Shown here: piece after piece, positions 14,018-30,480 of the stretch
Layout: every line of letters starts with the position of its first letter
How positions within the stretch are numbered: position 1 is the first letter of the stretch
Source: an uncultured Gammaproteobacteria bacterium
GTDB lineage: Bacteria; Patescibacteriota; Patescibacteriia; Magasanikbacterales; GWA2-37-8
Reading direction: 5' to 3'
Length of the DNA stretch: 64,000 bases
Assembly (NCBI GenBank): GCA_964482695.1
Contig: CAYZYP010000001.1
Span: forward strand, 68,143-132,142
Notes under the pieces: generated by a model
Database searches by the model: none
What the model saw: the letters and a program-made list of their open reading frames with translations, nothing else
Told to the model about the DNA's origin: nothing
Position numbers and translations under genes: made by a program

Positions 14018-14034
14018 AATTATAATTTTCAAAT

Positions 14035-16758: not shown

Positions 16759-16815
16759 AATGAACTGGGCATTTTATCAATATTTGGCTAAACAGTCAAT
16801 AGATATAGGTGTGGA

Positions 16816-19587
16816 TTGATTTTTTGGAGTAAATCTAGTAAAATACAGCCATTGTCTATAGATATTATGCCAGAATTAGCCAAAGCTTACGAGCCGCAAA
16901 AATACGAAGATAGAATATATAAACGCTGGGAAGAAAGCGGGTTTTTTAATCCGGATGTTTGTGTTGAGCATGGTGTTTGTAAAAAAGACGCCAATTCTTT
17001 TACTATTATTTTGCCACCACCTAATGTTACCGGTACTTTGCATATGGGCCATGCCGCCATGTTGGCCATAGAAGATGTCATGGTTCGTTATCACCGTATG
17101 AAGGGCGAAAAAACACTGTGGCTCCCGGGCACGGATCACGCGGCTATTGCCACGCAAACCAAAGTAGAAAAACTTTTGATAGCTAAGGGGATGAAAGATC
17201 CGCGTCAAGAATTGGGCAGGGAAAAATTTTTGAGTGAAGTGGATAAATTTGCCAAAGAATCTCACGATATTATAGTTAATCAAACAAAAAAAATTGGTTC
17301 ATCTTTGGATTGGAGCAGGGAAGCGTTTACATTGGATGAAAAGAGAAATTTAGCGGTTAGAACTGTTTTTAAGAAAATGTATGATGATGGTTTGATTTAT
17401 CGCGGTTACCGGATTGTTAATTGGTGTCCACGGTGTCATTCTACTTTGGCTGATGACGAGGTGGAGTATAAACCTGCTAAAACAAAATTGTATTGGATAA
17501 AATACGGTCCTTTTATTTTGGCGACAACTCGTCCAGAAACAAAATTGGGCGATACGGCAGTCGCGGTGCATCCGAAAGATAAAAGATATAAAAATATGGT
17601 AGGTAAGAAGTATATGATACCTGGGGTGTTGGGTGAATTTGAAGTCATAGTGGTGGCCGACGAAGCAGTGGATATGGAATTTGGCACGGGAGTCATTAAA
17701 GTTACGCCATACCATAGTTTTGCTGATTACGATATAGCTCAGAGACAACATTTAGTAGGCAAACAGATTATTGATGAGGATGGTAAAATGATGGCCAATT
17801 GTGGCAAGTATGCTGGCATGAAAACTGAAGAGGCGCGTAAGGTGATCGCAGAAGATATGGAAAAAATGGGTTTAATAGATCGCGTAGATGAAAATTATGA
17901 AAACAGTTTATCTGTTTGTTATCGTTGTGGGCATACAATAGAGCCAATTCCTTCTCGTCAATGGTTTATAGATGTTAATAAAGAATTTAAAATAGCAGAT
18001 AGTAAACTGCAAAATATTAAAAAAGGGCAGAAAGTGACTTTGAAAAAGTTAATGCAAGTAGTGGTAAAAAGCAATCAGATAGAAATTATTCCAGATAGGT
18101 TTAATAAAACATATTTTAGTTGGATAAATAATTTACGCGATTGGTGTATATCTAGACAAATTTGGTATGGTCACAGAATCCCAGTGTGGTATAAAGATGA
18201 AGAAATTTTTGTTGGTACAGAAGCGCCCGCGGAAGATGGTTGGAAACAAGATCCAGATACTTTAGACACTTGGTTTAGCTCTGGGCTTTGGACTTTTTCT
18301 ACTCTTGGTTATCCGGATTTAAATTCAACAGATTTAAAAAATTATCACCCAACCTCGGTTTTAGAAACTGGTTATGACATCTTATTTTTCTGGGTGGCTA
18401 GAATGATACTCATGACAACTTACGTTTTAGGCGACATTCCTTTTAAAAAAGTATATTTGCATGGATTGGTTCGAGATGAAAAAGGGCAAAAAATGAGCAA
18501 GTCCTTGGGCAACGTGATTGACCCATTGGATATGATAAAAAAGTATGGCGCGGATGCCACCAGATTGTCATTACTTGTTGGTACCACGCCAGGCAATGAC
18601 ATGAAGCTATCCGAAGAAAAAATCGCTGGTTTTAGGAATTTTGCCAATAAGTTGTGGAATATTAGTAGATTTATTTTATTAAATATAGATAAGCCACAAA
18701 GTAAATTAGATAGCCCAATACCCAGAACTTTTTTTGATAGATGTATATTGCACCAATTAAACAAACAAGCATCATTTGTCACAAACGATATAGAAGAATT
18801 TAGGCTCTCCGCCGCGGGTGAAAGACTGAGAGCTTTTACTTGGAATATTTTAGCTGATTGGTATTTGGAGATAGCTAAGATAGAGGGAAATAAATCTGAA
18901 ATATTAAATTATATTTTAAATAGTCTGCTTAAATTATGGCATCCATTCATGCCTTTTGTAACCGAAGCGATTTGGCAAGAGATTTATGGGAAAGAAAATA
19001 TATTAATGATCCAGTCTTGGGTTGATGTATTTAATGTTGAAACTACTGTTAATAATAAAAATGAACCAATTGCAAGATGGCCGAAAGTTGGTAGCCAGCA
19101 GGCATTGGAGATGTTTGATTTGGATGAAGGGTGGAATATTATTATAGGAGTAATTGGACATATTAGAAAGTTGCGCGCTGATTATAAAATAGAGCCAGCC
19201 AAAAAATTAAACGTGGTAATTAACGCTGGCAAAAAGATCGGCTTATTAAAAGAAAACGAAGCAGTTATCAAAGGTTTGGCCAGATTAGAGAGTGTTAAGA
19301 TAGAAGAAAAAATAGCTAAGCCAAAAAATTCCATTGGCTTTGTTGAAAGTGGTATAGAGGTGTATATTGATCTAGAGGGGGTTGTTGATGCGGGAAAAGA
19401 ACAGAAAAGGTTAGAAAAAGAAATAGTGGAATTAAAAAAATATACTGGTAATTTAGAAAAAAAATTAACTAATAAAGAATTTATTAAAAACGCGCCAAAG
19501 GAAATTATAGAAAAAGAAAAACAAAAGTTAAGCGAAGCCCAAGAAAAGTTAGAAAAATTACAAAAACAATTAACAGATTTAAAATAG
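16816..19587 (+). CDS. valS: Valyl-tRNA synthetase. The true start is probably near 16867.
   Basis: HIGH motif 'PPNVTGTLHMGHA', 'KMSKSLGN' and a C-terminal coiled coil. The length is ~920 aa. Confidence 0.9.
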   Translation: MIFWSKSSKIQPLSIDIMPELAKAYEPQKYEDRIYKRWEESGFFNPDVCVEHGVCKKDANSFTIILPPPNVTGTLHMGHAAMLAIEDVMVRYHRMKGEKTLWLPGTDHAAIATQTKVEKLLIAKGMKDPRQELGREKFLSEVDKFAKESHDIIVNQTKKIGSSLDWSREAFTLDEKRNLAVRTVFKKMYDDGLIYRGYRIVNWCPRCHSTLADDEVEYKPAKTKLYWIKYGPFILATTRPETKLGDTAVAVHPKDKRYKNMVGKKYMIPGVLGEFEVIVVADEAVDMEFGTGVIKVTPYHSFADYDIAQRQHLVGKQIIDEDGKMMANCGKYAGMKTEEARKVIAEDMEKMGLIDRVDENYENSLSVCYRCGHTIEPIPSRQWFIDVNKEFKIADSKLQNIKKGQKVTLKKLMQVVVKSNQIEIIPDRFNKTYFSWINNLRDWCISRQIWYGHRIPVWYKDEEIFVGTEAPAEDGWKQDPDTLDTWFSSGLWTFSTLGYPDLNSTDLKNYHPTSVLETGYDILFFWVARMILMTTYVLGDIPFKKVYLHGLVRDEKGQKMSKSLGNVIDPLDMIKKYGADATRLSLLVGTTPGNDMKLSEEKIAGFRNFANKLWNISRFILLNIDKPQSKLDSPIPRTFFDRCILHQLNKQASFVTNDIEEFRLSAAGERLRAFTWNILADWYLEIAKIEGNKSEILNYILNSLLKLWHPFMPFVTEAIWQEIYGKENILMIQSWVDVFNVETTVNNKNEPIARWPKVGSQQALEMFDLDEGWNIIIGVIGHIRKLRADYKIEPAKKLNVVINAGKKIGLLKENEAVIKGLARLESVKIEEKIAKPKNSIGFVESGIEVYIDLEGVVDAGKEQKRLEKEIVELKKYTGNLEKKLTNKEFIKNAPKEIIEKEKQKLSEAQEKLEKLQKQLTDLK

Positions 19588-19590
19588 TAT

Positions 19591-20793
19591 ATGAAAATAA
19601 ATACCGACAATCAAAAAATAGAAGAAGTTTTAACTCGTTCAATTGACACAATTTATCCAAGTAAAAAAGATTTTACAGAGATGTTAAAATCCGGCAAACA
19701 GTTACGTGTATACATGGGTATAGATCCAACTGCTACTTATGCTCATTTGGGCCACGCTACTAACTATATTATTTTGCGTCGCCTCCATGAATTAGGGCAT
19801 AAAATAATTGTTTTAATAGGCGATTTTACCGCTATGATTGGCGACCCGAGCGATAAAAGTTCTCTGCGTCAACGCCTTACCAAAGAACAAGTTCAAGAAA
19901 ACATGAAAACATTTAAAGCGCAAATAGGAAAAATTTTAGATTTTAATAATAAAGAAAATCCAATTGAATTAGCGTTTAATTCTGATTGGTTGGCGAAATT
20001 AACTTTTAGTGACGCCGTTGAATTGGCTTCTCATTTCACTGTCCAACGCATGTTAGAAAGAGATAATTTTGAAAAAAGAATAAAAGAAGAAAAGCCTTTG
20101 TATGTTCATGAATTTTTTTATCCTTTAATGCAAGGTTATGATTCTGTGGCTCTAAATGCCGATGTAGAAATAGGTGGCACAGATCAGACTTTTAATATGT
20201 TAGCTGGCCGTACTTTGGTTAAGGCTTATCAAAACAGAGAGAAGGTGGTTATTACCACGACTCTTTTGGAAAACCCGGTTACTGGGGAAAAATTAATGAG
20301 TAAGAGTTTGGGTACTGGCATTGGTTTAGACGAAACGCCAAATGATATGTTTGGCAAAACAATGGCTTTGCCGGACGAAGCCATAATACAGGTATTTATA
20401 GATTGTACTTATTTAAAAATGACAGAAATTAAAGAAATGGAAAAAGCTTTAAAAAGTGGTGCCAATCCGCGTGATTTAAAATTAAAGTTGGCTTATGAAA
20501 TAGTGAAAATGTATCATTCGTCAGAAGACGCTGAAAAAGCTAAAGAATATTTTATTAGCACCTTTAGTAAAAAAGAAATACCAACAGAAATACCAGAAAT
20601 CAAGCCAACAAATTATGATATTATTACAGTGCTGACCGAAGCCAAAATTTGCGCCAGTAAAACCCAAGCACGACAGGTAATAGCGCAAGGCGGAGTAAAG
20701 ATAAATGATAAAAAGATAAATGATATCGCCACTAAAGTTAGCACTGGCGATGTGATACAAAAGGGGAGTAGATGGTTTGTAAAGGTAAAATAA
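19591..20793 (+). CDS. tyrS: Tyrosyl-tRNA synthetase with a C-terminal S4 domain.
   Basis: 'GIDPTATYAHLGH' is the HIGH-type motif. 'KMSKSLGT' and a C-terminal S4-like domain ('QARQVIAQGGVKINDKKI') are present. Confidence 0.8.
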   Translation: MKINTDNQKIEEVLTRSIDTIYPSKKDFTEMLKSGKQLRVYMGIDPTATYAHLGHATNYIILRRLHELGHKIIVLIGDFTAMIGDPSDKSSLRQRLTKEQVQENMKTFKAQIGKILDFNNKENPIELAFNSDWLAKLTFSDAVELASHFTVQRMLERDNFEKRIKEEKPLYVHEFFYPLMQGYDSVALNADVEIGGTDQTFNMLAGRTLVKAYQNREKVVITTTLLENPVTGEKLMSKSLGTGIGLDETPNDMFGKTMALPDEAIIQVFIDCTYLKMTEIKEMEKALKSGANPRDLKLKLAYEIVKMYHSSEDAEKAKEYFISTFSKKEIPTEIPEIKPTNYDIITVLTEAKICASKTQARQVIAQGGVKINDKKINDIATKVSTGDVIQKGSRWFVKVK

Positions 20794-20799
20794 TTTTCT

Positions 20800-22641
20800 A
20801 TGTCTCTAATTAAAGCAGAAATTATAAAAATATTAAACAAAGCTGGCGTAAAAGGCGAATTTGAATTAGTAGTTCCTCCAAAATCAGAGATGGGTGATTT
20901 TTCGTTTGCCTGTTTTGAACTAGCAAAAGCAGAGAAGAAAAATCCGGTAGAAGTGGCAAAAGAAATAGTAAAAACCGTAGGGGCAGGTCGTGACCTGCCC
21001 GTACAAATATTAGAAAAAATCACAGCCATTGGCCCATACGTCAATTTCTATTTAAACAGTGCCGCAATAGCCGAAGTGGTATTAAAAGAAGTTAAAGATA
21101 AAAATTTTGGTAAAAGTAAAATTGGCGATAAGAAGAAAATAATGGTGGAATTCGCGCATCCTAACACTCACAAAGCGTTTCATATTGGCCATTTACGCAA
21201 CGCGATTACTGGCGAAAGCATGGTGCGAATTTTGGAAAATGCCGGTTACAAAGTAGTTAGGGCAAATTATCAAGGCGACGTGGGAATGCATATCGCGAAA
21301 TGTTTGTGGGGAATTTGGCATAATAATTTTTGTCATTCCGAGGAGCGAAGCGACGAGGAATCTCTGTCTCAAAAAATGTTAAGACAGAGATCCCTCGCTG
21401 CGGCTCGGGATGACAAATTGGAAACCATTGACGACAAAGTAAAATTTTTGGGTGAAGCGTACGTGCGAGGGAGTACGGCATTTGAAGAAGATGAAAAAGT
21501 TAAAGAGGAAATTATAGAAATAAACGATAAAATATATTCACAAGATAAAAGTATTAAAGAATTATACAAAACAACTAGAAAATGGAGTTTGGCATATTTT
21601 GATAAAATATATAAGCGGTTGGGGACGCGTTTTGATCGTTTATATTTTGAATCAGAAACATTTAAAAAAGGCAAAGAAATTGTCTTAAAATTTTTATCCA
21701 AAGGCGTGTTTATTGTTGGTGAAGGCGGGGCAATTGTTTTTGAAGGTTCCAAATACGGCTTGCACGACCGAGTGTTTGTCAATAGCAAAGGTTTTCCAAC
21801 TTATGAAGCAAAAGATTTGGCTTTGGCGGAATTGCAATTTAAAGAATATAAGCCAGAGATGATTTTGCATTTGGTGGCCAAAGAGCAGACCGAATATTTT
21901 AAAGTAATGTTTAAGTCTTTGGAATTTACTTTCCCCAAAAGCAAAGAGCGAGAAAAACATTTAGAATATGGCTGGGTAAGTTTAAAAGAAGGCAAAATGA
22001 GTTCACGTACCGGGCAAGTGGTATTAGGAGAATGGTTGCTTGATGAAGTAAAAAATAAAATTGCTGAAATAATGAAAGATAATAAATTTTCTGATAAAGA
22101 AAAAGTGATAGAAAAAATAGCTATCGCGGCAGTAAAGTATTCCATGTTAAAAACTGGCGTTAGAAATGATATTAAATTTGATTTTAATGAATCAATTAGT
22201 TTAACAGGTGATTCCGGACCGTATCTACTGTATATCGTGGCGAGAATAAATAGCATTTTGGCAAAAAGTCAAAATGTGGATTGTCATTCCGAACCCCGAC
22301 TAAGTCGGGGTGAGGAAGCTCTGCCCCAAAAAACATTAAGACAGAGATCCCTCGCTGTGGCTCGGGATGACAAGAAAACATTGTTAGAAAAAAGTCTTTT
22401 GTTGCACTTGTCTGAATTTTCAACAATAACAAAATTAGCGGCCGAGAGTTTTGACCCATCTAAAATCGCTAAATACTTGTTGGATTTAGCGCAAAAATTT
22501 AATGAATTTTACAGCCAATGTCCAATACTCCAAGCCGAAGAAGAAACACAAAAGTTTCGGTTACGGTTAATTAAAGAGGTTAGGCAGGTAATGGAAAGGG
22601 GATTATATTTATTGGGGATAGAGACGGTAAAAGAAATGTAA
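20800..22641 (+). CDS. argS: Arginyl-tRNA synthetase containing two in-frame palindromic-element insertions.
   Basis: 'AHPNTHKAFHIGHLRNA' is the HIGH motif and there is a C-terminal DALR-like anticodon-binding region. Removing the two ~29-aa inserts (CHSEE...RDDK) gives a typical ~555 aa ArgRS. Confidence 0.85.
   Translation: MSLIKAEIIKILNKAGVKGEFELVVPPKSEMGDFSFACFELAKAEKKNPVEVAKEIVKTVGAGRDLPVQILEKITAIGPYVNFYLNSAAIAEVVLKEVKDKNFGKSKIGDKKKIMVEFAHPNTHKAFHIGHLRNAITGESMVRILENAGYKVVRANYQGDVGMHIAKCLWGIWHNNFCHSEERSDEESLSQKMLRQRSLAAARDDKLETIDDKVKFLGEAYVRGSTAFEEDEKVKEEIIEINDKIYSQDKSIKELYKTTRKWSLAYFDKIYKRLGTRFDRLYFESETFKKGKEIVLKFLSKGVFIVGEGGAIVFEGSKYGLHDRVFVNSKGFPTYEAKDLALAELQFKEYKPEMILHLVAKEQTEYFKVMFKSLEFTFPKSKEREKHLEYGWVSLKEGKMSSRTGQVVLGEWLLDEVKNKIAEIMKDNKFSDKEKVIEKIAIAAVKYSMLKTGVRNDIKFDFNESISLTGDSGPYLLYIVARINSILAKSQNVDCHSEPRLSRGEEALPQKTLRQRSLAVARDDKKTLLEKSLLLHLSEFSTITKLAAESFDPSKIAKYLLDLAQKFNEFYSQCPILQAEEETQKFRLRLIKEVRQVMERGLYLLGIETVKEM
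21331..21415. repeat. Nested palindromic element copy B, in frame within argS.
   Basis: tgtcattccgaggagcgaagcgacgaggaatctctgtct...agacagagatccctcgctgcggctcgggatgaca. Confidence 0.85.
22282..22372. repeat. Nested palindromic element copy C, in frame within argS, with an extra internal hairpin ccccgactaagtcgggg.
   Basis: tgtcattccgaaccccgac...gacagagatccctcgctgtggctcgggatgaca. Confidence 0.85.
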
Positions 22642-22642
22642 A

Positions 22643-22672
22643 ACCACGGATTTTTACGTGGTTTTTTTATCC
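22643..22672 (+). terminator. Rho-independent terminator after argS (aaccacg..cgtggtt followed by T7).
   Basis: Hairpin plus T-run. Confidence 0.6.
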
Positions 22673-22700
22673 ACAGAAGGTATACTTTACAGTGTAACTA

Positions 22701-22934
22701 ATGAGGTGTACTGTACCATTAAATGGATTGACCATAGATATGACCAAAGCAGACAGTATTGAACGTTTGGTGATAAAAATCCCCAAAAGCGTGGCGGATT
22801 ATTTTCGTAGTGCTTTTCCGCACGGCAAACGCAGTGAGTTTTTAGCCAAATGTATTTTGGATTATAAACACCAAGAGGAAATAAAACAGATGGAAGATGA
22901 TTTGCGAGAGGCGGCAAAAAATAGACAAGAATAG
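22701..22934 (+). CDS. Putative type II antitoxin (MazE/PemI-like small DNA-binding protein).
   Basis: It is a 77-aa acidic C-tailed protein sitting directly upstream of a MazF/PemK-like toxin, with a stop/start spacing of 1 nt. Confidence 0.45.
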   Translation: MRCTVPLNGLTIDMTKADSIERLVIKIPKSVADYFRSAFPHGKRSEFLAKCILDYKHQEEIKQMEDDLREAAKNRQE

Positions 22935-22935
22935 T

Positions 22936-23304
22936 ATGAATCATGATATAGAAAAAATGTATTGTGGAGTAATAAATCGCGGGGATATTTTTGTCTGTGA
23001 ATATGAGAAAAAACAATTAGAAGTAGTTGTTTTGCAAGATGGTATTTTAAATAGTAGTTTGCCAACCGTTGTCTGCGCTCTTGCTAGGTCTATTGCCAAA
23101 GATGAAAAATTTTTTCCTAACGAAGTTTTATTACAAGCCAAAGAAACATTATTTATCGCAGATTATATTTGTCAGTTGCACAAAATAATAACAATAGACA
23201 GAAGAGCGATGTTAAAAAAAATAGGCAAGGTAAGCGAAGAAAAGTTAAAAAGTATTTATAAAGCGTTGGATGTGAATTTGGGGAGGTTTCGGGATAGAAA
23301 TTAA
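22936..23304 (+). CDS. MazF/PemK-family toxin (putative mRNA interferase).
   Basis: 'RGDIFVCEY...QLEVVVLQDGILNSSLPTVVCALARS' and 'TIDRRAMLKKIGKVSEEKLKSIYKALDVNLG' fit the PemK/MazF SH3-barrel pattern. The start at 22936 follows the antitoxin stop. Confidence 0.55.
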   Translation: MNHDIEKMYCGVINRGDIFVCEYEKKQLEVVVLQDGILNSSLPTVVCALARSIAKDEKFFPNEVLLQAKETLFIADYICQLHKIITIDRRAMLKKIGKVSEEKLKSIYKALDVNLGRFRDRN

Positions 23305-23342
23305 TTTAAAAACACGCGCAAATGTTATTCATTGCGCCAGCG

Positions 23343-23452
23343 GTCAGTATATATTTTAAAAGAAAAAAACAGTTATCCGTTTGCCTTTTTGCCTTTCGGC
23401 AAAAAGTTTTCCGACTACTTTTTTCTTTTAAAATATATACTGACCGCTGGCG
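23343..23452. repeat. Long nested palindrome E with ~35-bp perfect arms (cgccagcggtcagtatatattttaaaagaaaaaa) around an inner hairpin.
   Basis: Seen directly. It shares the 'cattgcgccagcgg' terminus with the element at 43958-44030. Confidence 0.8.
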
Positions 23453-23654
23453 AATCGTAAAAAAGATAATATTTTTATTTGCTCTTTAAAATCAAAATAT
23501 ATTTTGGGCGAGTTGCCCTTGTTTTTGTTTGTTTTGACGTTTTTGGTAACGTCTTTTTTGTTGATGTGGGTTTTAAGCAGATAAAGACAAGGGTAATGGT
23601 GCCCTTTTTTATTTTTTTCCAAGAGCCCACCAAATGGGCGGAAGGAGTTGATTC

Positions 23655-24956
23655 ATGGACACCAACCATGGAAACCCCACCCGCCCGGGGAAATGGGCGA
23701 AAATTCCGCGTGTGGCCTTTGTGGCTCACGCGTTATTGCCCGGCTATAGCTCCACGGCGCTGATTGAACAGCGCTTGCATGAGCTTGGCCGGGACTGCTG
23801 GCCTGGATCTGGCGAGGATCCGGGTTGGATAAAATGGTTTAGTTTTCCTGTCTGCCCCCCGTCGCAGTCTAGCGGCCAGCCGATCTGGGTTGACTTTTAC
23901 GTCATCCCAGTGTTGGCGCCACGGTTTCTTAAAGCCGTGGTGGCTGGGCAGGCATACAATTGGGCCGAGGAAGTGGCACTCGCCGCCATTTCCGAAGCCC
24001 AAGCCGATGGAGTTGAACTGACCCTGGGTTGGGGTGCTCTGACCAAGTTGGCCACTAATCACGGCCAGCTGTTTCTGGAAAAGCACCCCGAACTTAGTGG
24101 GCAGTTTAATTCTACACACGGTGATGCCGGCACCGCCCTGTTGGTAACAGAGGGTTTGATGCGGGCGGGCGTGGAGCCCGGTTGTCGTGTTGCCGTGATG
24201 GGCGCCAATGGCGCCATCGGCGACGCGGTGAGCCGGGTAATCACCACAGTAATTCAGCCGGAGAGTATTCTCTTGGTCGGCAAGGCGGACCGACCGGGAG
24301 AGACAAAAAATCTCTCCAGGCTGGAGGAACTCAAGTCGCGGGTGCGAGGTCATGTCCGCGGTGGAGCCACTGAGGTGGCCATTCACCAGGATAAGACACG
24401 CGCTTGCCGCGATCATCGCAGCGATGTGGTGGTCGTGGCGACCACCGGCATGGATCTCTCTCCGAGAGAAGTGCCGGTGGGGGCGCTGGTTATGGATATG
24501 ACCACGCCCGCTGCTTGCCAGCTTGACCCGAGCTGGGGCGGTCATCTAGTTTTGACCGCCGGATGCGGGGAATTCTCTCCCGAGGTTCTGCCCTCGGGGT
24601 TTGGAAATATAGGCGGCCGCCGACTGATTGATGCCGGCGCCGGTGGTCCTCGAATCATCTGGGGCTGTACGGGCGAAACCATCGCCCGGGCGGTCTTCGG
24701 ATGGCGAGGCCATTTGGCCGGGACGGCGATTCCCATGGACGCTCTGGAGTGGTGTTCTGACCACTTCGAGCGTCTGGGATTAGTCTCCCAGCCGCCTCTG
24801 AGTTTTAACAACCCAATCAGTTGGTCGCGCGTGCGAGAATTTGTCCAATTCTCGCGGTCGGCGCGGCCGCTGAAGGGGTTGATGAGGCGTTCTCCTCCCG
24901 CCAAGGAGGCGCCTATGGATTTGGGCGGCGTTCGCGCCGTCCTGTATCCAAAATAA
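23655..24956 (+). CDS. GC-rich foreign gene encoding an acyl-ACP reductase-like / COG5322-family NAD(P)-binding oxidoreductase. The conserved core begins near the GTG at 23712.
   Basis: 'VAFVAHALLPGYSS..IEQ', 'TLGWGALTKL' and the Rossmann motif 'VAVMGANGAIGDAVSRVI' parallel the cyanobacterial acyl-ACP reductase architecture. GC is ~60% against ~33% background. GGAAGGAG lies 8 nt upstream of the ATG. Confidence 0.5.
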   Translation: MDTNHGNPTRPGKWAKIPRVAFVAHALLPGYSSTALIEQRLHELGRDCWPGSGEDPGWIKWFSFPVCPPSQSSGQPIWVDFYVIPVLAPRFLKAVVAGQAYNWAEEVALAAISEAQADGVELTLGWGALTKLATNHGQLFLEKHPELSGQFNSTHGDAGTALLVTEGLMRAGVEPGCRVAVMGANGAIGDAVSRVITTVIQPESILLVGKADRPGETKNLSRLEELKSRVRGHVRGGATEVAIHQDKTRACRDHRSDVVVVATTGMDLSPREVPVGALVMDMTTPAACQLDPSWGGHLVLTAGCGEFSPEVLPSGFGNIGGRRLIDAGAGGPRIIWGCTGETIARAVFGWRGHLAGTAIPMDALEWCSDHFERLGLVSQPPLSFNNPISWSRVREFVQFSRSARPLKGLMRRSPPAKEAPMDLGGVRAVLYPK

Positions 24957-24997
24957 CCGCCCCGCGTGTTCACACCGCGGGGCGTTCTCTTTTTGTT
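24957..24997 (+). terminator. Rho-independent terminator (ccccgcgtgttcacaccgcgggg followed by a T-run).
   Basis: Strong GC hairpin and a U-tract immediately after the stop. Confidence 0.7.
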
Positions 24998-25057
24998 AGT
25001 ATTTTTTTGTGGTATAATATTATTATCATTCTTCTTAACTTCGTAATTTTTATTTTC

Positions 25058-26665
25058 ATGTTTACAGAAGTTTTTACTATTTTACCATTAGCCTGTGCCA
25101 TATCAGTGGCATTATTTGGTTTTTTTATTTTGTCAAATAATTATAGATCAAGAATGAATCAATTGATGTTTGGTTTTTGTTTATCTATGTTTTTTTGGCA
25201 ATTTGGTACTTTTATGATGTTTGGCACCAGAGTAGACGACACGCATACAGCTGTTTTTTGGGATAGATTTGTTTATATAGGCGTGGTGTTTATGCCATCT
25301 TTAATGCATCATTTTAGTTTGATTTTTACTGATAATAAAAAACAGAGAAGTTTATTGGTTATAAATTATATTTTATCTTTTTTATTTTTAGTTGCTAGCC
25401 GTTCGGAATATTTTGTTAGTGATTTATTTATATACTCTTGGGGCGCTCATTCAAAAGCAAAAATTTTACACACAGTATTTTTAGGTTATTTTTTCTTGGG
25501 CACAGGTCTATTTTTCTTTAATGTTTATAGATATTACCGAGCGGCAAAAGAAAAAATAGTTAAAATACAATCTATCTATGTATTTTTGGCTTTTGCTATT
25601 GTTATTTTTATTGGTGGCTCGGCCTATTTATATGCTTATGGCATAGACACAAAATTTCCTTTTGCCTATTTTACTGGTTTAATTTTTCCTGTTTTACTTT
25701 TTTACGCGGTTACCAAACACCATTTATTAGGTGGTAAAATGATACTTATCGAAGTATTAGTTGGTTTGGCTTGTTTTGTTTTGTTAACAGAGATGTTTTT
25801 GGCGAGATCAACTAGCGAATTAATTATCAGAATATTGATTGCTTTGATTATAACAATGATTGGCGTGCTATTAGTTATTTCCGTACGCAAAGAAATCCAG
25901 CGTCGCGAAGAAATCACCCAACTAGCCCACTCGCTAGAAAAAGCCAATTTGCGGCTAAAAGAATTAGACCAGCAAAAAACAGAATTTTTATCCATTGCTT
26001 CACACCAATTGCGCACGCCATTGTCGGTTTTAAATGGTTATCTGGAACTGTTAAAAGATGGCGACTATGGCAAGCCCACCAAAGGCATGTTAGAAGTAAT
26101 AGACAATATGGAAATCAGTAATGGTCATTTGGTAAAATTAATAGATAACTTTTTAGATATTTCGCGCATAGAACAAGGCCGAACCAAATTTAATTTTATT
26201 CAAGTAGATTTGTGTAAATTAGTCGCTAGCGTGGTAGAAGAATTACGCCAGCGCGCTTTGGATAAAGGCTTAAAAATTATTTGGCAGACAGAAGCTTGTT
26301 CTACCACCAAAGTAGAAGTAGACGAAGAGAAGATTAGGCATGTGGTGTTTAATTTTATAGATAATGCTATTAAATATACCGACAGTGGCACAATTAAGGT
26401 TAAGATGGAGCCAGAAGATAATGGCTTCGCAATAATGATAAAAGACCATGGGCTTGGTTTTGGTAAAGTAGACGAAGCTAATTTTTTTCAGAAATTTTAT
26501 CGCGGTGAAAATGTTAAGGGCATTAATGTCAATGGCACCGGTTTGGGCCTTTATGTCTGTCGCAAGTTTATAGAAGCCCATAATGGCAAAATTTGGGGCC
26601 ATAGCCAGGGCAAAAATAAGGGCAGTGAATTTGGTTTTTGGATACCGGCGAAGAGAAATGGGTAA
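25058..26665 (+). CDS. Sensor histidine kinase with an N-terminal multi-TM sensing domain. No adjacent response regulator.
   Basis: H-box 'FLSIASHQLRTPLSVLNGYLELL' and HATPase_c G-boxes 'GLGFGK' and 'GTGLGLYVCRKFIEAHNG'. The start is moved to the ATG at 25058, where composition switches back to AT-rich. Confidence 0.75.
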   Translation: MFTEVFTILPLACAISVALFGFFILSNNYRSRMNQLMFGFCLSMFFWQFGTFMMFGTRVDDTHTAVFWDRFVYIGVVFMPSLMHHFSLIFTDNKKQRSLLVINYILSFLFLVASRSEYFVSDLFIYSWGAHSKAKILHTVFLGYFFLGTGLFFFNVYRYYRAAKEKIVKIQSIYVFLAFAIVIFIGGSAYLYAYGIDTKFPFAYFTGLIFPVLLFYAVTKHHLLGGKMILIEVLVGLACFVLLTEMFLARSTSELIIRILIALIITMIGVLLVISVRKEIQRREEITQLAHSLEKANLRLKELDQQKTEFLSIASHQLRTPLSVLNGYLELLKDGDYGKPTKGMLEVIDNMEISNGHLVKLIDNFLDISRIEQGRTKFNFIQVDLCKLVASVVEELRQRALDKGLKIIWQTEACSTTKVEVDEEKIRHVVFNFIDNAIKYTDSGTIKVKMEPEDNGFAIMIKDHGLGFGKVDEANFFQKFYRGENVKGINVNGTGLGLYVCRKFIEAHNGKIWGHSQGKNKGSEFGFWIPAKRNG

Positions 26666-26734
26666 CCCTTTCCTCATTCCTCAAAATATAGTATTATATA
26701 CCCACTAACTTAACTTAATTTAATTTTAACAAGT

Positions 26735-27220
26735 ATGATTTTTCAAAAGAAAACGACATTTTTAGAAGAAATGACAAATAATAACGCCAATTTAGTCACA
26801 CCTGCGCAATCCAGAGAAGATGATGACGTAGAGACAGTCGTTGGCCCATCTGTTCACGTAGAAGGGGATTTAAGCTCTTCTGGCAATATTCTGGTAAAAG
26901 GCATGGTATCCGGCAATGTAAATACTACCAAACATCTAACAGTAGAGCCAGGAGCCAAAATAGTAGCCAACGTACATGCCGGAAGTGCCAAGGTATCAGG
27001 TGAAATAAAAGGCAATGTTAAAATAAAAGATTCTTTAGAACTTACTTCTTCAGCGCGGATTTTGGGCGATATTTCGGTAAAAGTATTGACTGTTGAACCA
27101 GGCGCTGTTTTATACGGCAAAATTTCCATGCCAGGGATAGAAGCAACAGAAAAGCAAACACCAGGGAAAAGGATAATTAAGAAAAGCACTGGCGAGTCAA
27201 TGAATAATAACGAGGCATAA
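26735..27220 (+). CDS. Bactofilin (DUF583) family cytoskeletal protein.
   Basis: Repetitive beta-helical segment 'VHVEGDLSSSGNILVKGMVSGNV.....LTVEPGAKIVANVHAGSAKVSGEIKGNVKI' is typical of bactofilins. Confidence 0.6.
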   Translation: MIFQKKTTFLEEMTNNNANLVTPAQSREDDDVETVVGPSVHVEGDLSSSGNILVKGMVSGNVNTTKHLTVEPGAKIVANVHAGSAKVSGEIKGNVKIKDSLELTSSARILGDISVKVLTVEPGAVLYGKISMPGIEATEKQTPGKRIIKKSTGESMNNNEA

Positions 27221-27267
27221 ATCCTAAATTGACATAATGGGATTTTGGATTTCAGTTTTTTTAAGTT

Positions 27268-28032
27268 ATGTACGTCTATCTTTACGACAATTTTTTGCGT
27301 CATAAAAGTTTTTCTTCTACAATTAAAGCCATGGAAGTTAAATTAACAGACTATGGTATTGCCGGGAAAATTTTACGTTTGCATAATTATATTGACGTAA
27401 AACCGATAATTGATGATGAGATAAAAAAAGGCGCTAAAACCATTGTAATAGTGGGTAATGACGCCACCTTTGGCCAAGTATTATCGCGGGGAGCAACTTG
27501 TGATTGTGTTTTTGGTTTTTTGCCAGTAGGCCCGGATAATACCATTGCCGATGTGCTCGGTGTTTCAATTGGAGTTGATGCTTGTGACGTGTTATCACGT
27601 CGTCGCAAAGAAAAACTAGATGTAGGCTGGATGAACAATCGTTATTTTGTTTCCCAACTTAGAGTACCGCCAGCAAAAGTAGAAGTAATTTATGATGAAA
27701 AGTTTAAAGCTAGTTCTAGAGATAAAATGGAAGTTGTTGTCTGTAATTTACAGCCATTTTATTGGAAACGAGATAAAAAAGATTCCGAACAGCAAGTAGT
27801 TCATCCACAGGATGGAAAATTAGAAGCTTTTTTGCGGCCATTGACAAAAAAGCGTTGGTGGGGTTATAACTACGAAGAGCCGAGCGTCTTTCCGTTTGAA
27901 GAAATGGAAATAATCGGTGACGAGGCTTTTGCCGTAGAAGCAGATGGTAAATATTCAAAAGAAGTGCGGTTAAAAATACGTTTGGCGAGGAATAAGATAG
28001 AGATGATAGTAGGGAGAAATAGGAAGTTTTAG
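27268..28032 (+). CDS. Diacylglycerol-kinase-catalytic-domain (DAGK_cat/YegS/NAD-kinase-like) family protein with a degenerate GGDGT motif.
   Basis: 'TIVIVGNDATFGQVL' aligns to the GGDGT region but reads GNDAT. Overall size and layout are consistent with the family. Confidence 0.35.
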   Translation: MYVYLYDNFLRHKSFSSTIKAMEVKLTDYGIAGKILRLHNYIDVKPIIDDEIKKGAKTIVIVGNDATFGQVLSRGATCDCVFGFLPVGPDNTIADVLGVSIGVDACDVLSRRRKEKLDVGWMNNRYFVSQLRVPPAKVEVIYDEKFKASSRDKMEVVVCNLQPFYWKRDKKDSEQQVVHPQDGKLEAFLRPLTKKRWWGYNYEEPSVFPFEEMEIIGDEAFAVEADGKYSKEVRLKIRLARNKIEMIVGRNRKF

Positions 28033-28055
28033 TAAAAAACAAGTGTCATTCATTT

Positions 28056-28137
28056 GCCCGGGTGGTGAAATTGGTAAACACGCCATTTTGAGGTGATGGT
28101 GTCGCAAGGCTTGGAGGTTCGAGTCCTCTCCCGGGCA
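28056..28137 (+). tRNA. tRNA-Leu (anticodon GAG), type II with a long variable arm.
   Basis: Manual fold: acceptor gcccggg/cccgggc, D-arm gtg-aaattggtaaa-cac, anticodon stem ccatt/gatgg with loop ttGAGgt, 13-nt variable arm, T-arm ggagg-ttcgagt-cctct, discriminator A. CCA is not encoded. Confidence 0.8.
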
Positions 28138-28152
28138 CTAAAATTAATTTTT

Positions 28153-28395
28153 ATGCGTTATTTAATCGGCTTGGCAATGGTTGGTTTTGGTGTTATATTA
28201 ATAATAAAGACCAAGTGGTTTGTAGAGAATTTTGGCACCAGTGCTTGGGCCGAAGAAAAAATGGGCACTGCTGGCGGCACGCGTTTGATGTATAAATTAA
28301 TTGGTTTGGGCTTTATATTTTTCGGCATGATGGTAATAACCAATATGATCGGTGGATTTTTAATGGCAACGATTGGGAAATTATTTATGAGATAA
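28153..28395 (+). CDS. Small membrane protein (two TM helices), unknown function.
   Basis: Hydrophobic ORF. The start is moved to 28153 to avoid overlapping the tRNA. Confidence 0.35.
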   Translation: MRYLIGLAMVGFGVILIIKTKWFVENFGTSAWAEEKMGTAGGTRLMYKLIGLGFIFFGMMVITNMIGGFLMATIGKLFMR

Positions 28396-28406
28396 ATTTA
28401 ATTATT

Positions 28407-28952
28407 ATGTCTCACTCGGGCACCGCTTTAATTGATCCGTATAAAGTTTTTGAAAAAGTAGGCTTATCTCCTGGGATGCGGGTGGCTGATTTTGGTTGTG
28501 GCCGCACTGGTCATTTTGTTTTCCCTAGCGCCAAAATAGTAGGTGAAAAGGGGATAGTTTACGCCATAGATATTATTAAAAACATATTAGAAAGCATCAA
28601 GAGCTTGGCAAAAAGCGAAGGTTATGATAATGTGCAAGTGATTTGGTCTGATGTTGAGCTTGTTGGGAAAACACCAATACCGGAAAATAGCCTAAATGCC
28701 TGCTTTTTTATCAATTTATTGTCCCAAGTAAAAGAAAGAGAAGCTGTTATCAAAGAAGCTTCGCGCTTATTGAAAAACGATGGTTATTTGGCCGTAATAG
28801 ACTGGCATAAAAAATTAGGTCTTTTGGGGCCCAGTGAAGCACAAAAAGTTTTGCCGGAATTGGTAATTAATTTTGCTAAAGATAGTAATTTAAAATTACA
28901 AGAAAGCACCATGATGAGCGATTACCATTATTTGTTGATTTTTAGAAAATAA
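28407..28952 (+). CDS. Class I SAM-dependent methyltransferase.
   Basis: Motif I 'VADFGCGRTGHF' and an acidic residue after beta-2 in 'VYAIDI'. Confidence 0.55.
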   Translation: MSHSGTALIDPYKVFEKVGLSPGMRVADFGCGRTGHFVFPSAKIVGEKGIVYAIDIIKNILESIKSLAKSEGYDNVQVIWSDVELVGKTPIPENSLNACFFINLLSQVKEREAVIKEASRLLKNDGYLAVIDWHKKLGLLGPSEAQKVLPELVINFAKDSNLKLQESTMMSDYHYLLIFRK

Positions 28953-28958
28953 TATATT

Positions 28959-29351
28959 ATGAGTATACAAAATATTTTTATTATTAATTATTGGCTTAGC
29001 CAACCTTTGCCAGCTTATGGTTTTACACTATTATTATTAGTAGGCGGCTTTTTGTTTTTTATAATTGTTGGTTTAGTGCTAAGAATAGTGATACAGACTA
29101 AAAAAGACAAATCAATAAGAGTGGCTTTGAAACGTTTGAGTAATTTTTGTATGGTTATGGGGTTGCTTGGCCTGATGTGGATGTTTTTTCGTCAACAAAA
29201 CGTATTTTTTTTATCTTGGCGATTTTGGTTATTGATTTTGATAGGCATCGCCGCTTGGTGGTTAGTGCGTATTTTAGAATATGTTATTCGTCGCGTACCA
29301 GTAATTAAACAAGAGCAAGCTGAACGAGAGATAAAGGCTAGATATTTATAA
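28959..29351 (+). CDS. Membrane protein of unknown function.
   Basis: Three predicted TM segments and a basic C-terminus. Confidence 0.35.
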   Translation: MSIQNIFIINYWLSQPLPAYGFTLLLLVGGFLFFIIVGLVLRIVIQTKKDKSIRVALKRLSNFCMVMGLLGLMWMFFRQQNVFFLSWRFWLLILIGIAAWWLVRILEYVIRRVPVIKQEQAEREIKARYL

Positions 29352-29360
29352 CTATATATT

Positions 29361-29720: not shown

Positions 29721-29778
29721 CTGTTATTAGTTTTTTTGTTAAAATGTTGTTAATTAATAAAATTTAATATAATTTAGT

Positions 29779-30394: not shown

Positions 30395-30480
30395 GTTACG
30401 CATGGCGCCAAGGGATATGACTTTTTGGATCACAGGCTTTCGCCTGATGCCCAAAAAGTAATATCCCTTGGCGTGACGCA
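30395..30480. repeat. Nested palindrome G. Outer arms are gcgccaagggatat.actttttgg. An inner hairpin is atcacaggctttcgcctgatg.
   Basis: Seen directly. The right terminus 'ggcgtgacgc' is shared with the element at 43958-44030. Confidence 0.7.

Follow-up and report, generated by a model that had tools for sequence, protein, structure and literature searches.

The window (the whole stretch of DNA analysed here, 64,000 nt) contains a single block of about 60% GC, at 23620-24997, in sequence that elsewhere is 35% GC. The block holds one gene, for a putative thioester reductase, and lies between a toxin-antitoxin (TA) pair and a histidine kinase gene. The features of the locus are listed below.

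22701-22934, plus strand: small ORF of 77 aa from the ORF list, directly upstream of the toxin and its presumed antitoxin in the PemK pair
22897-23304, plus strand: PemK/MazF-type toxin of an endoribonuclease family (Pfam PF02452)
23335-23452, no strand: AT-rich palindrome of 118 nt found by arm complementarity, lineage-specific and outside the conserved unit
23506-23616, plus strand: three consecutive terminator-like hairpins with T-runs, dividing the TA pair from the reductase gene
23625-23647, plus strand: short stem GCCCA..TGGGC (23625-23639), then the SD GGAAGGAG (23640-23647), read from the sequence
23655-24956, plus strand: coding sequence (CDS) of a putative 433-aa AAR/TAD/PigE-N-type Cys-dependent NAD(P)H thioester reductase, the GC-rich, hairpin-folded transcript body (ORF, fold, profile and composition)
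24008-24114 (30 bp), 24171-24244 (23 bp), 24340-24405 (26 bp) and 24731-24779 (20 bp), plus strand: further large CDS hairpins predicted in the MFE structure
24201-24221, plus strand: codons of the Rossmann dinucleotide-binding motif, G183-A-N-G-A-I-G189 (A1 alignment)
24639-24718, plus strand: largest single CDS hairpin (34 bp, 5-nt loop) predicted in the MFE structure
24666-24668, plus strand: codon of the invariant Cys338, presumed acyl-accepting nucleophile (alignment)
24958-24997, plus strand: intrinsic terminator of the reductase gene with a 9-bp GC stem and a T-run, read from the sequence
25010-25018, plus strand: extended -10 element TGGTATAAT, end mark of the GC-rich unit
25058-26665, plus strand: AT-rich HisKA_7TM histidine kinase, the invariable downstream neighbour (Pfam and synteny)

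The GC-rich block and the abrupt return to AT-rich sequence reported in the preliminary description were evident at both scales examined. In 200-nt windows, GC was 0.555-0.645 across 23600-24999, 0.29-0.45 upstream and 0.24-0.33 downstream, and all remaining 1-kb bins had a GC of 0.42 or less. The reductase gene itself is 60.3% GC, compared with 35.2% for the remainder of the window. Compared with 46 other long ORFs, its GC3 was 0.647 against 0.300 +- 0.034 (z = 10.3) and its GC1+2 0.581 against 0.383 (z = 4.9). Codon usage was likewise atypical relative to the host genes, with CTG making up 41% of Leu codons in the reductase gene and 4% in the comparison. In composition and codon usage the gene thus deviates as a genomic island does.

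The block coincides with a single-gene unit bounded by an SD and a terminator, as had been proposed. The SD GGAAGGAG is spaced 7 nt from the ATG; the same layout of stem and SD recurs in L008, L037 and L039 (orthologous loci are numbered L), and a GGAGG-type SD precedes most of the orthologs with a reliable start call. The terminator stem is formed by CGCCCCGCG and CGCGGGGCG, pairing over 9 bp around a 9-nt loop; it was read by eye, as our scanner, limited to 8-nt loops, missed it. Most orthologs have a GC-rich hairpin and T-run after the stop codon. The terminator-like hairpins on the upstream side lie at 23506-23528, 23536-23563 and 23589-23616, the first and third being recognisable in L008. 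The transcript ends of the reductase unit are predicted positions. Downstream of the terminator, TGGTATAAT is likely the promoter of the histidine kinase gene; at least 11 loci have tgtggtataat or tgtgatataat beyond the terminator (in full in the window, L008, L009, L011, L016, L033, L038 and L040; in part in L010, L012 and L013).

The MazEF-like module described upstream is a type II TA pair of the PemK/MazF class. The toxin ORF matched PF02452 (PemK_toxin) at E 2.3e-11 and 44.3 bits (cut-off 23.1), and gene callers on L001 and L005 placed its start at approximately 22936, giving 122 aa. The 77-aa ORF ends at the toxin start and is syntenic in 12 of 17 genome loci at 41-68% identity; searches of Pfam, NCBIfam and PADLOC gave no family match for it. 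The palindrome is also real, with 39-nt arms (23335-23373 and 23414-23452) that are 95% complementary, and it begins slightly earlier than the 23343 first given. It has no second copy in the window and could not be aligned in L008. Rfam 15 gave no match within the island at the gathering threshold; at E <= 1, only generic long-hairpin microRNA models were matched, on the palindrome. The kinase matched HATPase_c (8.5e-23), HisKA (3.9e-16) and HisKA_7TM (2.4e-9). Consistent with the preliminary description, no integrase or transposase gene was present among the gene calls within about 10 kb. A search for direct repeats flanking the island found none, and the only tRNA lies 3 kb downstream. The locus therefore lacks the mobility genes, direct repeats and border tRNA of a genomic island.

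The product had been likened to cyanobacterial AAR and COG5322 dehydrogenases, and our searches confirmed this homology at the level of profile and fold, with weak direct matches to AAR. The AAR equivalog itself (TIGR04058 of NCBIfam, long-chain acyl-ACP reductase) was rejected, as the model matched only residues 91-214 (E 0.0016) at 17.8 bits against a cut-off of 449.7; the direct sequence match to PDB 6jzu was weak (E 0.07). The AF2 model (pLDDT 90.4) has the two-domain fold of the superfamily, an N-terminal domain and a Rossmann-type dinucleotide-binding domain. A Foldseek search with this model returned 6jzu at E 1.7e-16 and the carmabin TAD 9e56 at E 1.5e-16; the best 15 matches were AAR or TAD chains only (E 1e-13 to 1e-16; TM 0.65-0.76 on target), and those ranked below were Rossmann-only. 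The hhalign comparison of the family profile (A1) with AAR/PigE-N-like relatives (A2) extended over the whole catalytic region (probability 100%, E 4.4e-43, 346 columns), with the catalytic-Cys motif aligned; the best E values of the A2 relatives were 1.8e-21 with the AcACP_reductase model and 5.6e-44 with that of PigE. Among sequences of solved structures, PigE (4PPM) was the best profile-to-sequence match, again over the whole catalytic region (E 4e-6).

In the A1 alignment, G183, A184 and G186 of the Rossmann motif are invariant and A187 and G189 nearly so (at least 90%); the motif aligned with GATGDIG of AAR and GAxGxIG of the A2 relatives. Cys338 does not vary among 30 sequences; it aligns with the Cys of 'LNGCMAETIV' in PigE and of 'YGCLAET' in the AAR-like relatives, and it opens helix 337-347 of the AF2 model. 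Alignment and model together place an invariant Cys at a helix start, as expected of the nucleophile that faces the nicotinamide in this superfamily. Its equivalence to Cys294 of AAR and Cys2238 of TAD rests on the published description of those residues as helix-start Cys (bioRxiv 10.1101/2024.10.28.620694 for TAD). These results identify the protein as a member of the AAR / CarI-TAD / PigE-N (COG5322-type) thioester-reductase superfamily. A preference for NADPH may be guessed from the Lys/Arg that follows strand beta2.

The substitution pattern is that of a real protein (dN/dS 0.14 against L008, at a dS of 0.78, close to the kinase dS of 0.92). Its family comprises 55 cluster representatives among 1.84 billion proteins and is largely confined to Patescibacteria. 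The JGI annotation of two members reads 'predicted amino acid dehydrogenase', which we take to be the COG5322 label. No carrier-protein or partner gene was found near the reductase gene, and no aldehyde-deformylating oxygenase (ADO) gene among the genes adjoining it at the loci examined. One member (P0049) is fused to a haem-oxygenase-like domain, which hints, by analogy with the AAR-ADO pair, at an aldehyde-consuming partner. Patescibacteria, the host organisms, are thought to be without fatty-acid synthesis.

The same locus was found in 30 other Magasanikbacteria/Patescibacteria loci from separate assemblies, which refutes the earlier view that such a gene is not expected in this genome. The shared gene order, ArgRS-(TA)-gene-histidine kinase-bactofilin-DAGK, is kept in 17 genome loci; another 11 loci from metagenomes show it, as do deep orthologs that are 36% and 34% identical. 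The reductase gene occupied this site in 31 of 31 loci, and neither the patchy presence nor the discordant phylogeny of a genomic island was observed: pairwise identities of the reductase tracked those of the kinase (Pearson 0.88), compared with 0.77 for kinase and DAGK. Phylogenetic placement to identify a donor had been suggested at the outset; in a neighbour-joining (NJ) tree with a weak backbone and no support values, the two members from high-GC contigs (59% and 73% GC) were nested in the family, not basal. The reductase gene is thus old and vertically inherited in Magasanikbacteria-type bacteria, and is neither foreign DNA nor an assembly error.

In all 31 loci the reductase gene was GC-richer than its flanks, by +0.049 to +0.262. 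Equilibrium values (GC3*) were derived from polarised synonymous changes in seven trio comparisons from five groups of related loci; they were 0.54-0.67 for the reductase gene and 0.26-0.48 for neighbouring genes, with the caveat that majority-rule polarisation biases GC3* towards 0.5. The exception was one trio (L020/L021/L023), in which kinase GC3* was 0.54 and genome GC3 about 0.50. S>W and W>S counts in the reductase gene were roughly balanced in the trios. Synonymous sites were saturated between most orthologs, and GC3 was still 0.45-0.80 in most. These results show that the composition is maintained near equilibrium and is not fading. In two marine lineages (L024/L046/L047 and L029) and in L042 (GC3 0.301), GC3 was at the genome level, indicating that the GC-rich trait can be lost.

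The reductase message is predicted to be exceptionally structured, all RNA structures described here being predictions. The folding energy of the CDS was -713.9 kcal/mol, compared with -563.5 +- 9.6 in synonymous shuffles (z = -15.7); against dinucleotide shuffles, the sense strand scored z = -19.7 and the antisense strand z = -9.8. The z value was negative in 19 of 19 CPR orthologs tested (-1.1 to -15.7) and ranged from -3.5 to +3.0 in eight control genes of the window, and a 64-kb scan found the island to be the sole long run of strongly folding windows. In the predicted fold, pairing involves 73% of the bases at a median span of 28 nt, G-U accounts for 14% of the pairs, and the large helices were recovered in both the MFE fold and a second fold. 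Since a single exact inverted repeat of at least 12 nt was present in the island DNA, the helices are of RNA type and not DNA palindromes. However, GC excess and extra structure were loosely coupled (L015 has a GC3 of 0.745 yet a z of -4.2, and L020 a GC3 of 0.69 yet a z of -1.1), so structure beyond composition cannot fully explain the GC content.

In the clade L010-L014, 51 pairs were changed on both sides, compared with 27.6 +- 3.6 after shuffling (reached in 0 of 500) and 10-19 in slid controls, the structure having been derived from the same sequences on which it was tested. In the comparison of the window with L008, both bases had changed in 27 pairs, of which 18 can still form, against about 35% in slid controls. 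Single mismatches in Watson-Crick helices favoured G/T over A/C by 61:23, where about 1.3:1 is expected from composition; this excess could have arisen from strand-biased deamination instead of selection. No consensus structure was found in a codon alignment of 31 family members, and no specific RNA element is therefore conserved, a result that fits selection for generic foldedness and also fits a non-adaptive process. The predicted hairpins thus show compensatory changes within clades and turnover between clades.

Several other explanations of the GC-rich block must be weighed. That a GC-rich block was wrongly joined to an AT-rich contig, one of two alternatives raised initially, could be suspected from the three assemblies that end inside the upstream palindrome and from L001, a contig of another sample that departs from the window directly after the terminator, from 25001. 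However, L001 is identical to the window over 13655-25000 and so covers the upstream junction, and contigs of three further assemblies (L002-L004) are identical over 23419-29745 and so cover the downstream junction; the GC-rich gene and its AT-rich flanks also share one contig in L008, which is 78% identical at the nt level, and in some 25 loci of greater distance. A chimera has next to no probability. The other initial alternative, a recent and unameliorated acquisition from a high-GC donor beside the TA module, would account for the sharp compositional break and the foreign codon usage, and the members on high-GC contigs show that such sequences exist. It is refuted by the 30 syntenic loci, reaching down to 34% identity with divergence that tracks the neighbours, by GC3 that persists although synonymous sites are saturated, and by polarised changes that are balanced instead of GC>AT-dominated; the lack of mobility genes and the nested position of the high-GC members also oppose it, and we regard it as extremely improbable. 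A single ancient transfer from a GC-rich donor into the ancestor of the clade, followed by slow neutral amelioration with the hairpins as a side effect, is compatible with the wide distribution of related COG5322 proteins, the three lineages with genome-level GC3 and the weak NJ backbone. It is nevertheless very unlikely, as the two closest genomes already have a dS of 0.78, orthologs at 34-58% identity are still up to 26 points off their flanks, the GC3* of the gene is 0.54-0.67, and folding lies up to 15-20 sd beyond composition-matched shuffles and is accompanied by compensatory changes.

A local non-adaptive bias might hold the block at high GC and self-complementarity with no advantage to the RNA; the candidates are template-switch 'quasi-palindrome correction' and, at a recombination hot spot, GC-biased gene conversion. 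Template switching would yield double changes that look compensatory, the hairpins are replaced from clade to clade with no family-wide structure, and the antisense strand also beats its shuffles. Against this, the boundaries of the block are the SD and terminator in every lineage, unlike those of recombination tracts, the helices are broken by G-U pairs and bulges and include the one exact inverted repeat only, the gain in stability is larger on the sense strand, and the window holds no second copy to serve conversion; such a bias is distinctly unlikely. Selection for a message that survives the neighbouring PemK/MazF toxin, which cuts single-stranded RNA, so that the enzyme is still made while the toxin is active, is a specific version of the explanation that we favour below. 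Unusually for a TA, the pair keeps its syntenic position beside the gene across most lineages, and GC excess was larger with PemK upstream (+0.183, n = 17) than without (+0.115, n = 10; p = 0.005 by Mann-Whitney test, with no correction for phylogeny). The TA-containing window also has the most extreme structure, the second, L008, having too little upstream sequence to show whether the pair is present. However, ten loci without the pair still have a GC-rich gene, among them L031 (+0.18, GC3 0.80, z = -6.3) and L014 (+0.20, z = -6.3), no 3- to 5-mer is depleted from the CDS beyond composition, and PADLOC gave no match. We consider this specific version unlikely.

The probable explanation, in our judgement, is a vertically kept single-gene unit for an AAR-like enzyme, whose GC-rich and hairpin-rich mRNA is held near equilibrium by selection at the RNA level. 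The transcription unit would have occupied one chromosomal site from a time that predates the divergence of the sampled lineages, with the ArgRS gene (followed or not by the PemK TA pair) on one side and the 7TM histidine kinase on the other. By analogy with its relatives, the enzyme may transfer an acyl group from a thioester carrier (ACP, PCP or CoA) to Cys338, where Rossmann-bound NAD(P)H would reduce it to a free aldehyde. GC-richness would belong to the transcribed unit as such, beginning at the SD and ending at the terminator, in genomes whose own GC is 29-47%, and the transcript is predicted to fold into a near-continuous array of local hairpins beyond the expectation from protein, codons or dinucleotides. 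Selection for a heavily base-paired message may have raised GC at all three codon positions, and such a message could be long-lived or endonuclease-resistant because it is so heavily paired. Candidate reasons are that the message outlasts general decay or attack by the neighbouring PemK endoribonuclease, or that a marginally stable enzyme is translated more slowly. The fuller claim, that RNA-structure selection and not protein or mutation bias sets the base composition and has long kept this one message GC-rich and fully folded in a lineage of AT-rich bacteria with small genomes, and that an aldehyde-forming reductase is made under harsh RNA decay, possibly with PemK active, is tentative, and we give it somewhat less than an even chance.

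The locus is a clear counter-example to the routine practice of reading atypical GC as misassembly or recent horizontal transfer; pipelines for island calling or MAG decontamination would flag or drop a core, vertically inherited gene. It offers a rare natural case of a block 5-26 GC points above its genome with normal synonymous turnover, a folding excess and compensatory changes, and it raises the question of mRNA-structure selection as a driver of gene-level base composition. It also defines a small, largely Patescibacteria family of AAR-like thioester reductases. If RNA-level selection is the correct reading, the unit, with its 5' stem, SD, CDS hairpin array and terminator, would be a natural counterpart of engineered 'stabilised' mRNAs.

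Comparison with known systems places these features in context. Horizontally acquired genes reportedly follow the amelioration model of Lawrence and Ochman (1997). The locus resembles genomic islands in its sharp compositional break, atypical codon usage and adjoining TA module; it differs in having no mobility genes, no patchy distribution, a phylogeny that agrees with the flanks and a composition at equilibrium. With AAR (TIGR04058; PDB 6JZU/6JZQ) the protein shares the two-domain fold (TM 0.76 on target, at the Foldseek E of 1.7e-16), the (V/F)xxxxH N-terminal motif, GWGALTK, THGDAGT and the GAxGxIG Rossmann loop, with a helix-start Cys in place of the catalytic Cys294 and, by analogy, a probable ping-pong chemistry in which Cys takes up the acyl group and NAD(P)H then reduces it to an aldehyde. 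In contrast to AAR, to which it is about 16-17% identical, it is about 90 residues longer, has no nearby ADO gene, belongs to a non-photosynthetic CPR lineage, and carries nearly invariant Cys 288 and 304 and several invariant Trp/His for which an AAR counterpart is not established. The N-terminal reductase-like domain of PigE, from the MAP pathway of prodigiosin (NF053554; 4PPM), has NGCMAETI where our family has WGCxxETI; however, PigE is fused to an aminotransferase and the window protein is unfused. The TAD of CarI from the carmabin system (PDB 9E4S-9E56) is as good a fold match (E 1.5e-16) and likewise has an invariant Cys beside the nicotinamide, reached through an NAD tunnel; TAD closes an NRPS module, owes a preference for NAD(H) to an Asp and catalyses a reaction that is as yet unproven (bioRxiv 10.1101/2024.10.28.620694), whereas the window protein is free-standing and has neither a PCP nor an NRPS in its vicinity. 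At the RNA level, the nearest parallels are genome-scale ordered RNA structure (GORS) in some RNA viruses and designed, highly structured mRNAs, which have been linked to RNA persistence or half-life (PMC10499610; bioRxiv 10.1101/549022). Our case differs in being a single chromosomal gene of an otherwise ordinary AT-rich bacterial genome, for which a link to half-life would be an analogy; it shares with them base pairing throughout the coding sequence and an excess of folding energy over shuffles that is independent of any one conserved element.

Over 200-nt windows, the GC content rose from 0.31 (23400-23599) to 0.555-0.645 (23600-24999) and fell to 0.24 by 25000-25199, and it was 0.42 or less in every other 1-kb bin of the 64-kb window. 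The reductase ORF at 23655-24956 had a GC content of 60.3%, compared with 35.2% for the remaining window. Its GC3 was 0.647 versus 0.300 +- 0.034 in the 46 other long ORFs (z = 10.3), and its GC content at codon positions 1 and 2 was 0.581 versus 0.383 in the same ORFs. These profiles and codon statistics bear out the preliminary description of a block of about 60% GC that returns abruptly to AT-rich sequence. The comparison with host codon usage that it had proposed showed an inverted codon choice: CTG accounted for 41% of Leu codons in the gene and 4% in host genes, and AGA for 3% and 31% of Arg codons, respectively. The encoded protein is enriched in Gly, Ala, Arg, Pro, and Trp and poor in Lys, Asn, Ile, and Tyr. 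The sole tRNA in the window, Leu-GAG, leaves the codon shift unexplained. A small local GC peak at 1951-2138 consists of about 16 tandem copies of the 9-nt unit CCGGCCACC, which, if translated, would give a Pro/Ala/Thr-type repeat.

The gene unit and its neighbours comprise the following features.

22936-23304, upstream of the gene and behind a 77-aa ORF, plus strand: PemK/MazF-family toxin (Pfam E 2.3e-11)
23335-23452: AT-rich palindrome of 118 nt with 39-nt arms and an inner stem, unique in the window
23506-23616: three terminator-like hairpins in tandem, with T-runs, between the toxin-antitoxin (TA) pair and the gene, two of them recognisable in L008, the closest relative (78% nucleotide identity)
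7 nt upstream of the ATG of the gene, plus strand: Shine-Dalgarno (SD) sequence GGAAGGAG
23655-24956, plus strand: CDS of the reductase (433 aa), the only ORF of the GC-rich block
24958-24997, plus strand: terminator after the stop codon, a 9-bp GC stem with a T-run
25010-25018: extended -10 element, TGTGGTATAAT or TGTGATATAAT, immediately past the reductase terminator (at least 11 loci)
25058 (start), downstream of the gene: HisKA_7TM histidine kinase

A strong SD and a strong terminator, both noted in the preliminary description, delimit the gene as a stable single-gene unit, which is followed by the conserved extended -10 element, presumably the promoter of the histidine kinase. A promoter belonging to the gene itself was not found; the tandem hairpins at 23506-23616 may serve to insulate it or to reduce read-through. 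The MazEF-like neighbour was confirmed by the Pfam match of the toxin, and the large palindrome is present with slightly wider limits than described (23343-23452). The palindrome is missing from L008, and three independent assemblies end within it, which makes it an assembly breakpoint. The antitoxin-PemK pair (22701-23304) occupies the same site across clades at 41-68% identity; it is of an ordinary type in a position that is unusually stable for a TA module. PADLOC matched neither the reductase, the toxin, nor the antitoxin, and membership of a defence system was ruled out on this result. A 270-aa antisense ORF and its counterparts in nine orthologs were no longer than in synonymous shuffles, and an overlapping antisense gene was set aside.

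The preliminary description had proposed that the island was either a recent horizontal acquisition or a chimeric assembly join. L001, a contig from a different sample, was identical to the window at 13655-25000 and crossed the upstream junction, and three other assemblies were identical from 23419 to at least 28138 (29745 in the longest) and crossed the downstream junction. This independent coverage of both junctions contradicts a chimeric join. Past window position 25000, the terminator end, L001 carries a different sequence with a MetRS-like fragment (11349-12248 of L001), a sign either that the strain is rearranged or that the contig end is chimeric at the shared terminator/promoter. The case from phylogeny is even stronger. 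With one genome scanned per species, 17 loci with the gene came to light, a metagenome scan yielded 11 further new loci, and two deep orthologs (36% and 34% identity) were retrieved separately. Where flanking sequence sufficed, the order was ArgRS, antitoxin-PemK (in about two-thirds of loci), the gene, and the HisKA_7TM kinase, with a bactofilin gene and a DAGK-like gene after the kinase in most loci. The pairwise identities of the gene and the kinase were correlated (Pearson 0.88; kinase versus DAGK, 0.77), and between the window and L008 the gene had a dN/dS of 0.14 and a dS of 0.78, close to the dS of the kinase (0.92), which indicates that the gene encodes a functional protein and has diverged in step with its neighbours. 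This co-divergence, together with a gene order maintained down to 34% identity, argues against recent horizontal acquisition. A high-GC donor was also discarded; family members from contigs of 73% and 59% GC were nested rather than basal in an NJ tree, which, as it has no support values, speaks only weakly against such a donor. We reject both readings of the island.

Several records of these genomes (L008, L013, and L015-L019) are titled 'uncultured Gammaproteobacteria' despite a Patescibacteria-type locus, probably a labelling artefact. The ArgRS proteins of the syntenic loci L009-L024 form two classes, one with 34-36% and the other with 55-59% identity to that of the window; L024 lies in between (45%). 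Unlike ArgRS, the neighbouring genes of these loci diverge smoothly, which suggests that ArgRS was swapped for a distant version in some lineages. The ArgRS gene of the window (20800-22641) contains two in-frame repeat copies (21355-21416 and 22312-22373; 90% identical, 62-76 nt) that encode '...EESLSQKMLRQRSLAAARDDK'-like inserts; at 568 aa, ArgRS orthologs fall about 45 aa short of the window protein. Near 246-330, close to the window start, there is a third copy, which has diverged; the repeat looks like a small element tolerated within an essential gene.

The GC content of the gene exceeded that of its flanks in all 31 loci (+0.049 to +0.262, median +0.144), and in every profile examined the rise was limited to the gene. 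Its GC3 was 0.75 in L015, on a contig of 37% GC, and 0.80 in L031, the ortholog with 34% identity, on a contig of 46% GC; in two marine lineages and in L042 (GC3 0.301), it was at the genome level. For seven trios of related loci, taken from five groups, synonymous changes at third codon positions were given a direction by majority rule. In the gene, GC-to-AT and AT-to-GC changes were roughly even (e.g., 50 vs 40, 55 vs 62, and 35 vs 33), and the implied equilibrium GC3 was 0.54-0.67, compared with 0.26-0.48 for the genes beside it in these genomes; the exception was the trio L020/L021/L023, in which the kinase equilibrium was 0.54 at a genome GC3 of about 0.50. Since majority-rule polarisation pulls these equilibria towards 0.5 from both sides, the true contrast between gene and neighbours is, if anything, larger. 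The GC-rich composition is near equilibrium, a balance of changes at odds with a single old transfer followed by simple amelioration.

The predicted folding of the mRNA was far above expectation. The minimum for the CDS was -713.9 kcal/mol, compared with -563.5 +- 9.6 kcal/mol in 14 shuffled versions with the same protein and the gene's own codon usage (z = -15.7). Eight other genes of the window, used as controls, gave z values of -3.5 to +3.0. Against synonymous shuffles, L008 and L010 reached -11.3 and -9.5, and z was negative in all 19 CPR orthologs tested (weakest, -1.1); the family members from contigs of 73% and 59% GC gave -0.8 (no excess) and -4.4 (some excess), respectively. Relative to dinucleotide shuffles, the first 1000 nt had z = -19.7 on the sense strand, and the antisense z was -9.8. 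When all 64 kb were scanned in 300-nt windows (mean z -0.76, sd 1.94), the island alone produced a long strong run, 11 consecutive windows at 23551-25200 with z values of -4.5 to -9.2. Other short stretches fold far beyond shuffles (z -5.7 to -9.7) at 10041-10228, 30406-30473, 38701-39150, and 43801-44250, two of which coincide with inverted repeats. The predicted structure of the CDS is a chain of local hairpins with 73% of bases paired, a median span of 28 nt, stems of up to 34 bp (at 24639-24718), and G-U as 14% of pairs. When helices were computed without G-U, single mismatches of the G/T and A/C types stood at 61:23, whereas base composition predicts about 1.3:1. In the island, a search for exact DNA inverted repeats of at least 12 nt detected only one; the predicted helices are therefore of the RNA type rather than DNA palindromes. 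An Rfam search matched no known ncRNA in the island. Pairing probabilities near the start codon were only slightly below those in the body of the gene, and the SD was not consistently occluded, which argues against a sequestered ribosome-binding site or riboswitch-like control.

Conservation of the predicted hairpins was assessed by comparative counts. The window and L008 had 50% of predicted base pairs in common, compared with 1-3% in controls, and clade members had 25-38% in common. In L008, 27 window pairs differ at both positions, and 18 of them could still pair, compared with about 35% in slid controls. For the five-sequence clade L010-L014, RNAalifold predicted 383 pairs at -366.9 kcal/mol, with 51 pairs changed on both sides versus 27.6 +- 3.6 in shuffles (0/500 reached 51) and 10-19 when partners were slid; the covariation score was 0.229 versus 0.056-0.087 in controls. 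These values are somewhat favourably biased, as the structure was derived from the same five sequences on which it was scored. Over the 31-sequence codon alignment, the consensus (19 pairs, -1.6 kcal/mol) was equal to that of shuffled alignments, which excludes a family-wide conserved RNA structure. The hairpins are conserved within clades only: they persist at short evolutionary distances and give way to others at long ones.

The preliminary description had called the product acyl-ACP-reductase-like. Direct sequence searches were nearly silent: Pfam returned DapB_N alone (E 0.0065), the NCBIfam model AcACP_reductase matched at E 0.0016 with 17.8 bits against a cut-off of 449.7, and the cyanobacterial acyl-ACP reductase (AAR) in the PDB matched at E 0.07. 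Among 5.8 billion proteins, the family had 48 cluster representatives (39-81% identity), the named ones being Magasanikbacteria or Patescibacteria, and a HMMER search through all 1.84 billion representatives found just 55 members. An AlphaFold2 model built on 30 family members (pLDDT 90.4, pTM 0.89) was compared with the PDB by Foldseek. The top 15 matches were chains of two proteins, AAR (6jzu; E 1.7e-16, TM 0.76 on the target) and the carmabin terminal amidation domain, TAD (9e56; E 1.5e-16), and the matches beneath them covered the Rossmann half only. The family profile aligned with the PigE N-terminal domain, placing WGCxxETI over NGCMAETI, and with a profile of more distant relatives (100% probability, E 4e-43, 346 columns), which themselves match the AAR model at up to 1e-21 and the PigE-N model at up to 6e-44. 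The Rossmann motif GAxGxIG, GWGALTK, THGDAGT, and a Cys were in line throughout. This Cys338 is invariant in the family and in the model begins helix 337-347; the same helix-starting position has been described for Cys2238 of TAD and for the catalytic Cys294 of AAR (bioRxiv 10.1101/2024.10.28.620694). Because fold matches, profile alignments, shared motifs, and the position of Cys338 agree, the earlier assignment holds at the level of the superfamily and not for AAR itself: the conserved enzyme is a new, separate subfamily of the AAR/TAD/PigE-N superfamily, whose enzymes are Cys- and nicotinamide-dependent and act on thioesters. By analogy with AAR, the reaction would proceed by acyl transfer to Cys338, hydride transfer, and aldehyde release. 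In one member, P0049 (L025 402-2687, on a contig of 72.6% GC), the reductase is fused C-terminally to a haem-oxygenase-like 'iron-containing redox enzyme' domain (PF14518, E 1e-5, just below the cut-off). Such a domain may be likened to ADO, the aldehyde-deformylating oxygenase that acts on the product of AAR, and the fusion hints at a partner acting on or using the aldehyde.

From the predicted folds and comparative counts, we suggest that the transcript itself is the target of selection. Heavy pairing would need G-C pairs and would pull up GC at synonymous and, more slowly, at replacement sites. A short stem lies immediately 5' of the strong SD and a strong hairpin at the 3' end of the unit, a layout linked to long-lived bacterial and designed stable mRNAs (PMC10499610; bioRxiv 10.1101/549022). 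Gene conversion, template switching, or another non-adaptive process may be the cause instead, but would sit poorly with a GC-rich block whose limits coincide with those of the transcript in every lineage and with helices that are G-U-rich and interrupted. The ultimate reason for selection on the transcript may be, in order of preference, resistance to endonucleolytic decay, including that by the neighbouring PemK; slowed translation of an aggregation-prone enzyme type; or something not yet imagined.

PemK, like other MazF-type toxins, cuts single-stranded RNA. Resistance of the message to this toxin is weakly favoured by the GC excess of the gene, which was +0.183 at loci with the TA pair and +0.115 at those without it (p = 0.005, uncorrected for phylogeny). 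However, ten loci without the pair keep a GC-rich gene, strongly structured in some (L031 and L014), and no specific short motif is avoided: among 3- to 5-mers in 18 orthologs, none was selectively absent relative to synonymous shuffles, and the strongest depletions (CCC, CCCT, GGGTC, and TTA) were all partial, so toxin-site avoidance was set aside. As for slowed translation, one study reports enzymes of this type to be marginally stable and aggregation-prone (PMC8187606).

The finding exceeds an ordinary island in interest, for a reason absent from the preliminary description. Our searches, which covered open-access papers and so yield only absence of evidence, turned up no report of a gene on a bacterial chromosome whose GC content remains 5-26 points above that of its genome across deep vertical descent and whose coding region folds along its whole length. 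For the predicted folding, the closest counterparts are engineered mRNAs and the genome-scale ordered RNA structure known from some RNA viruses.
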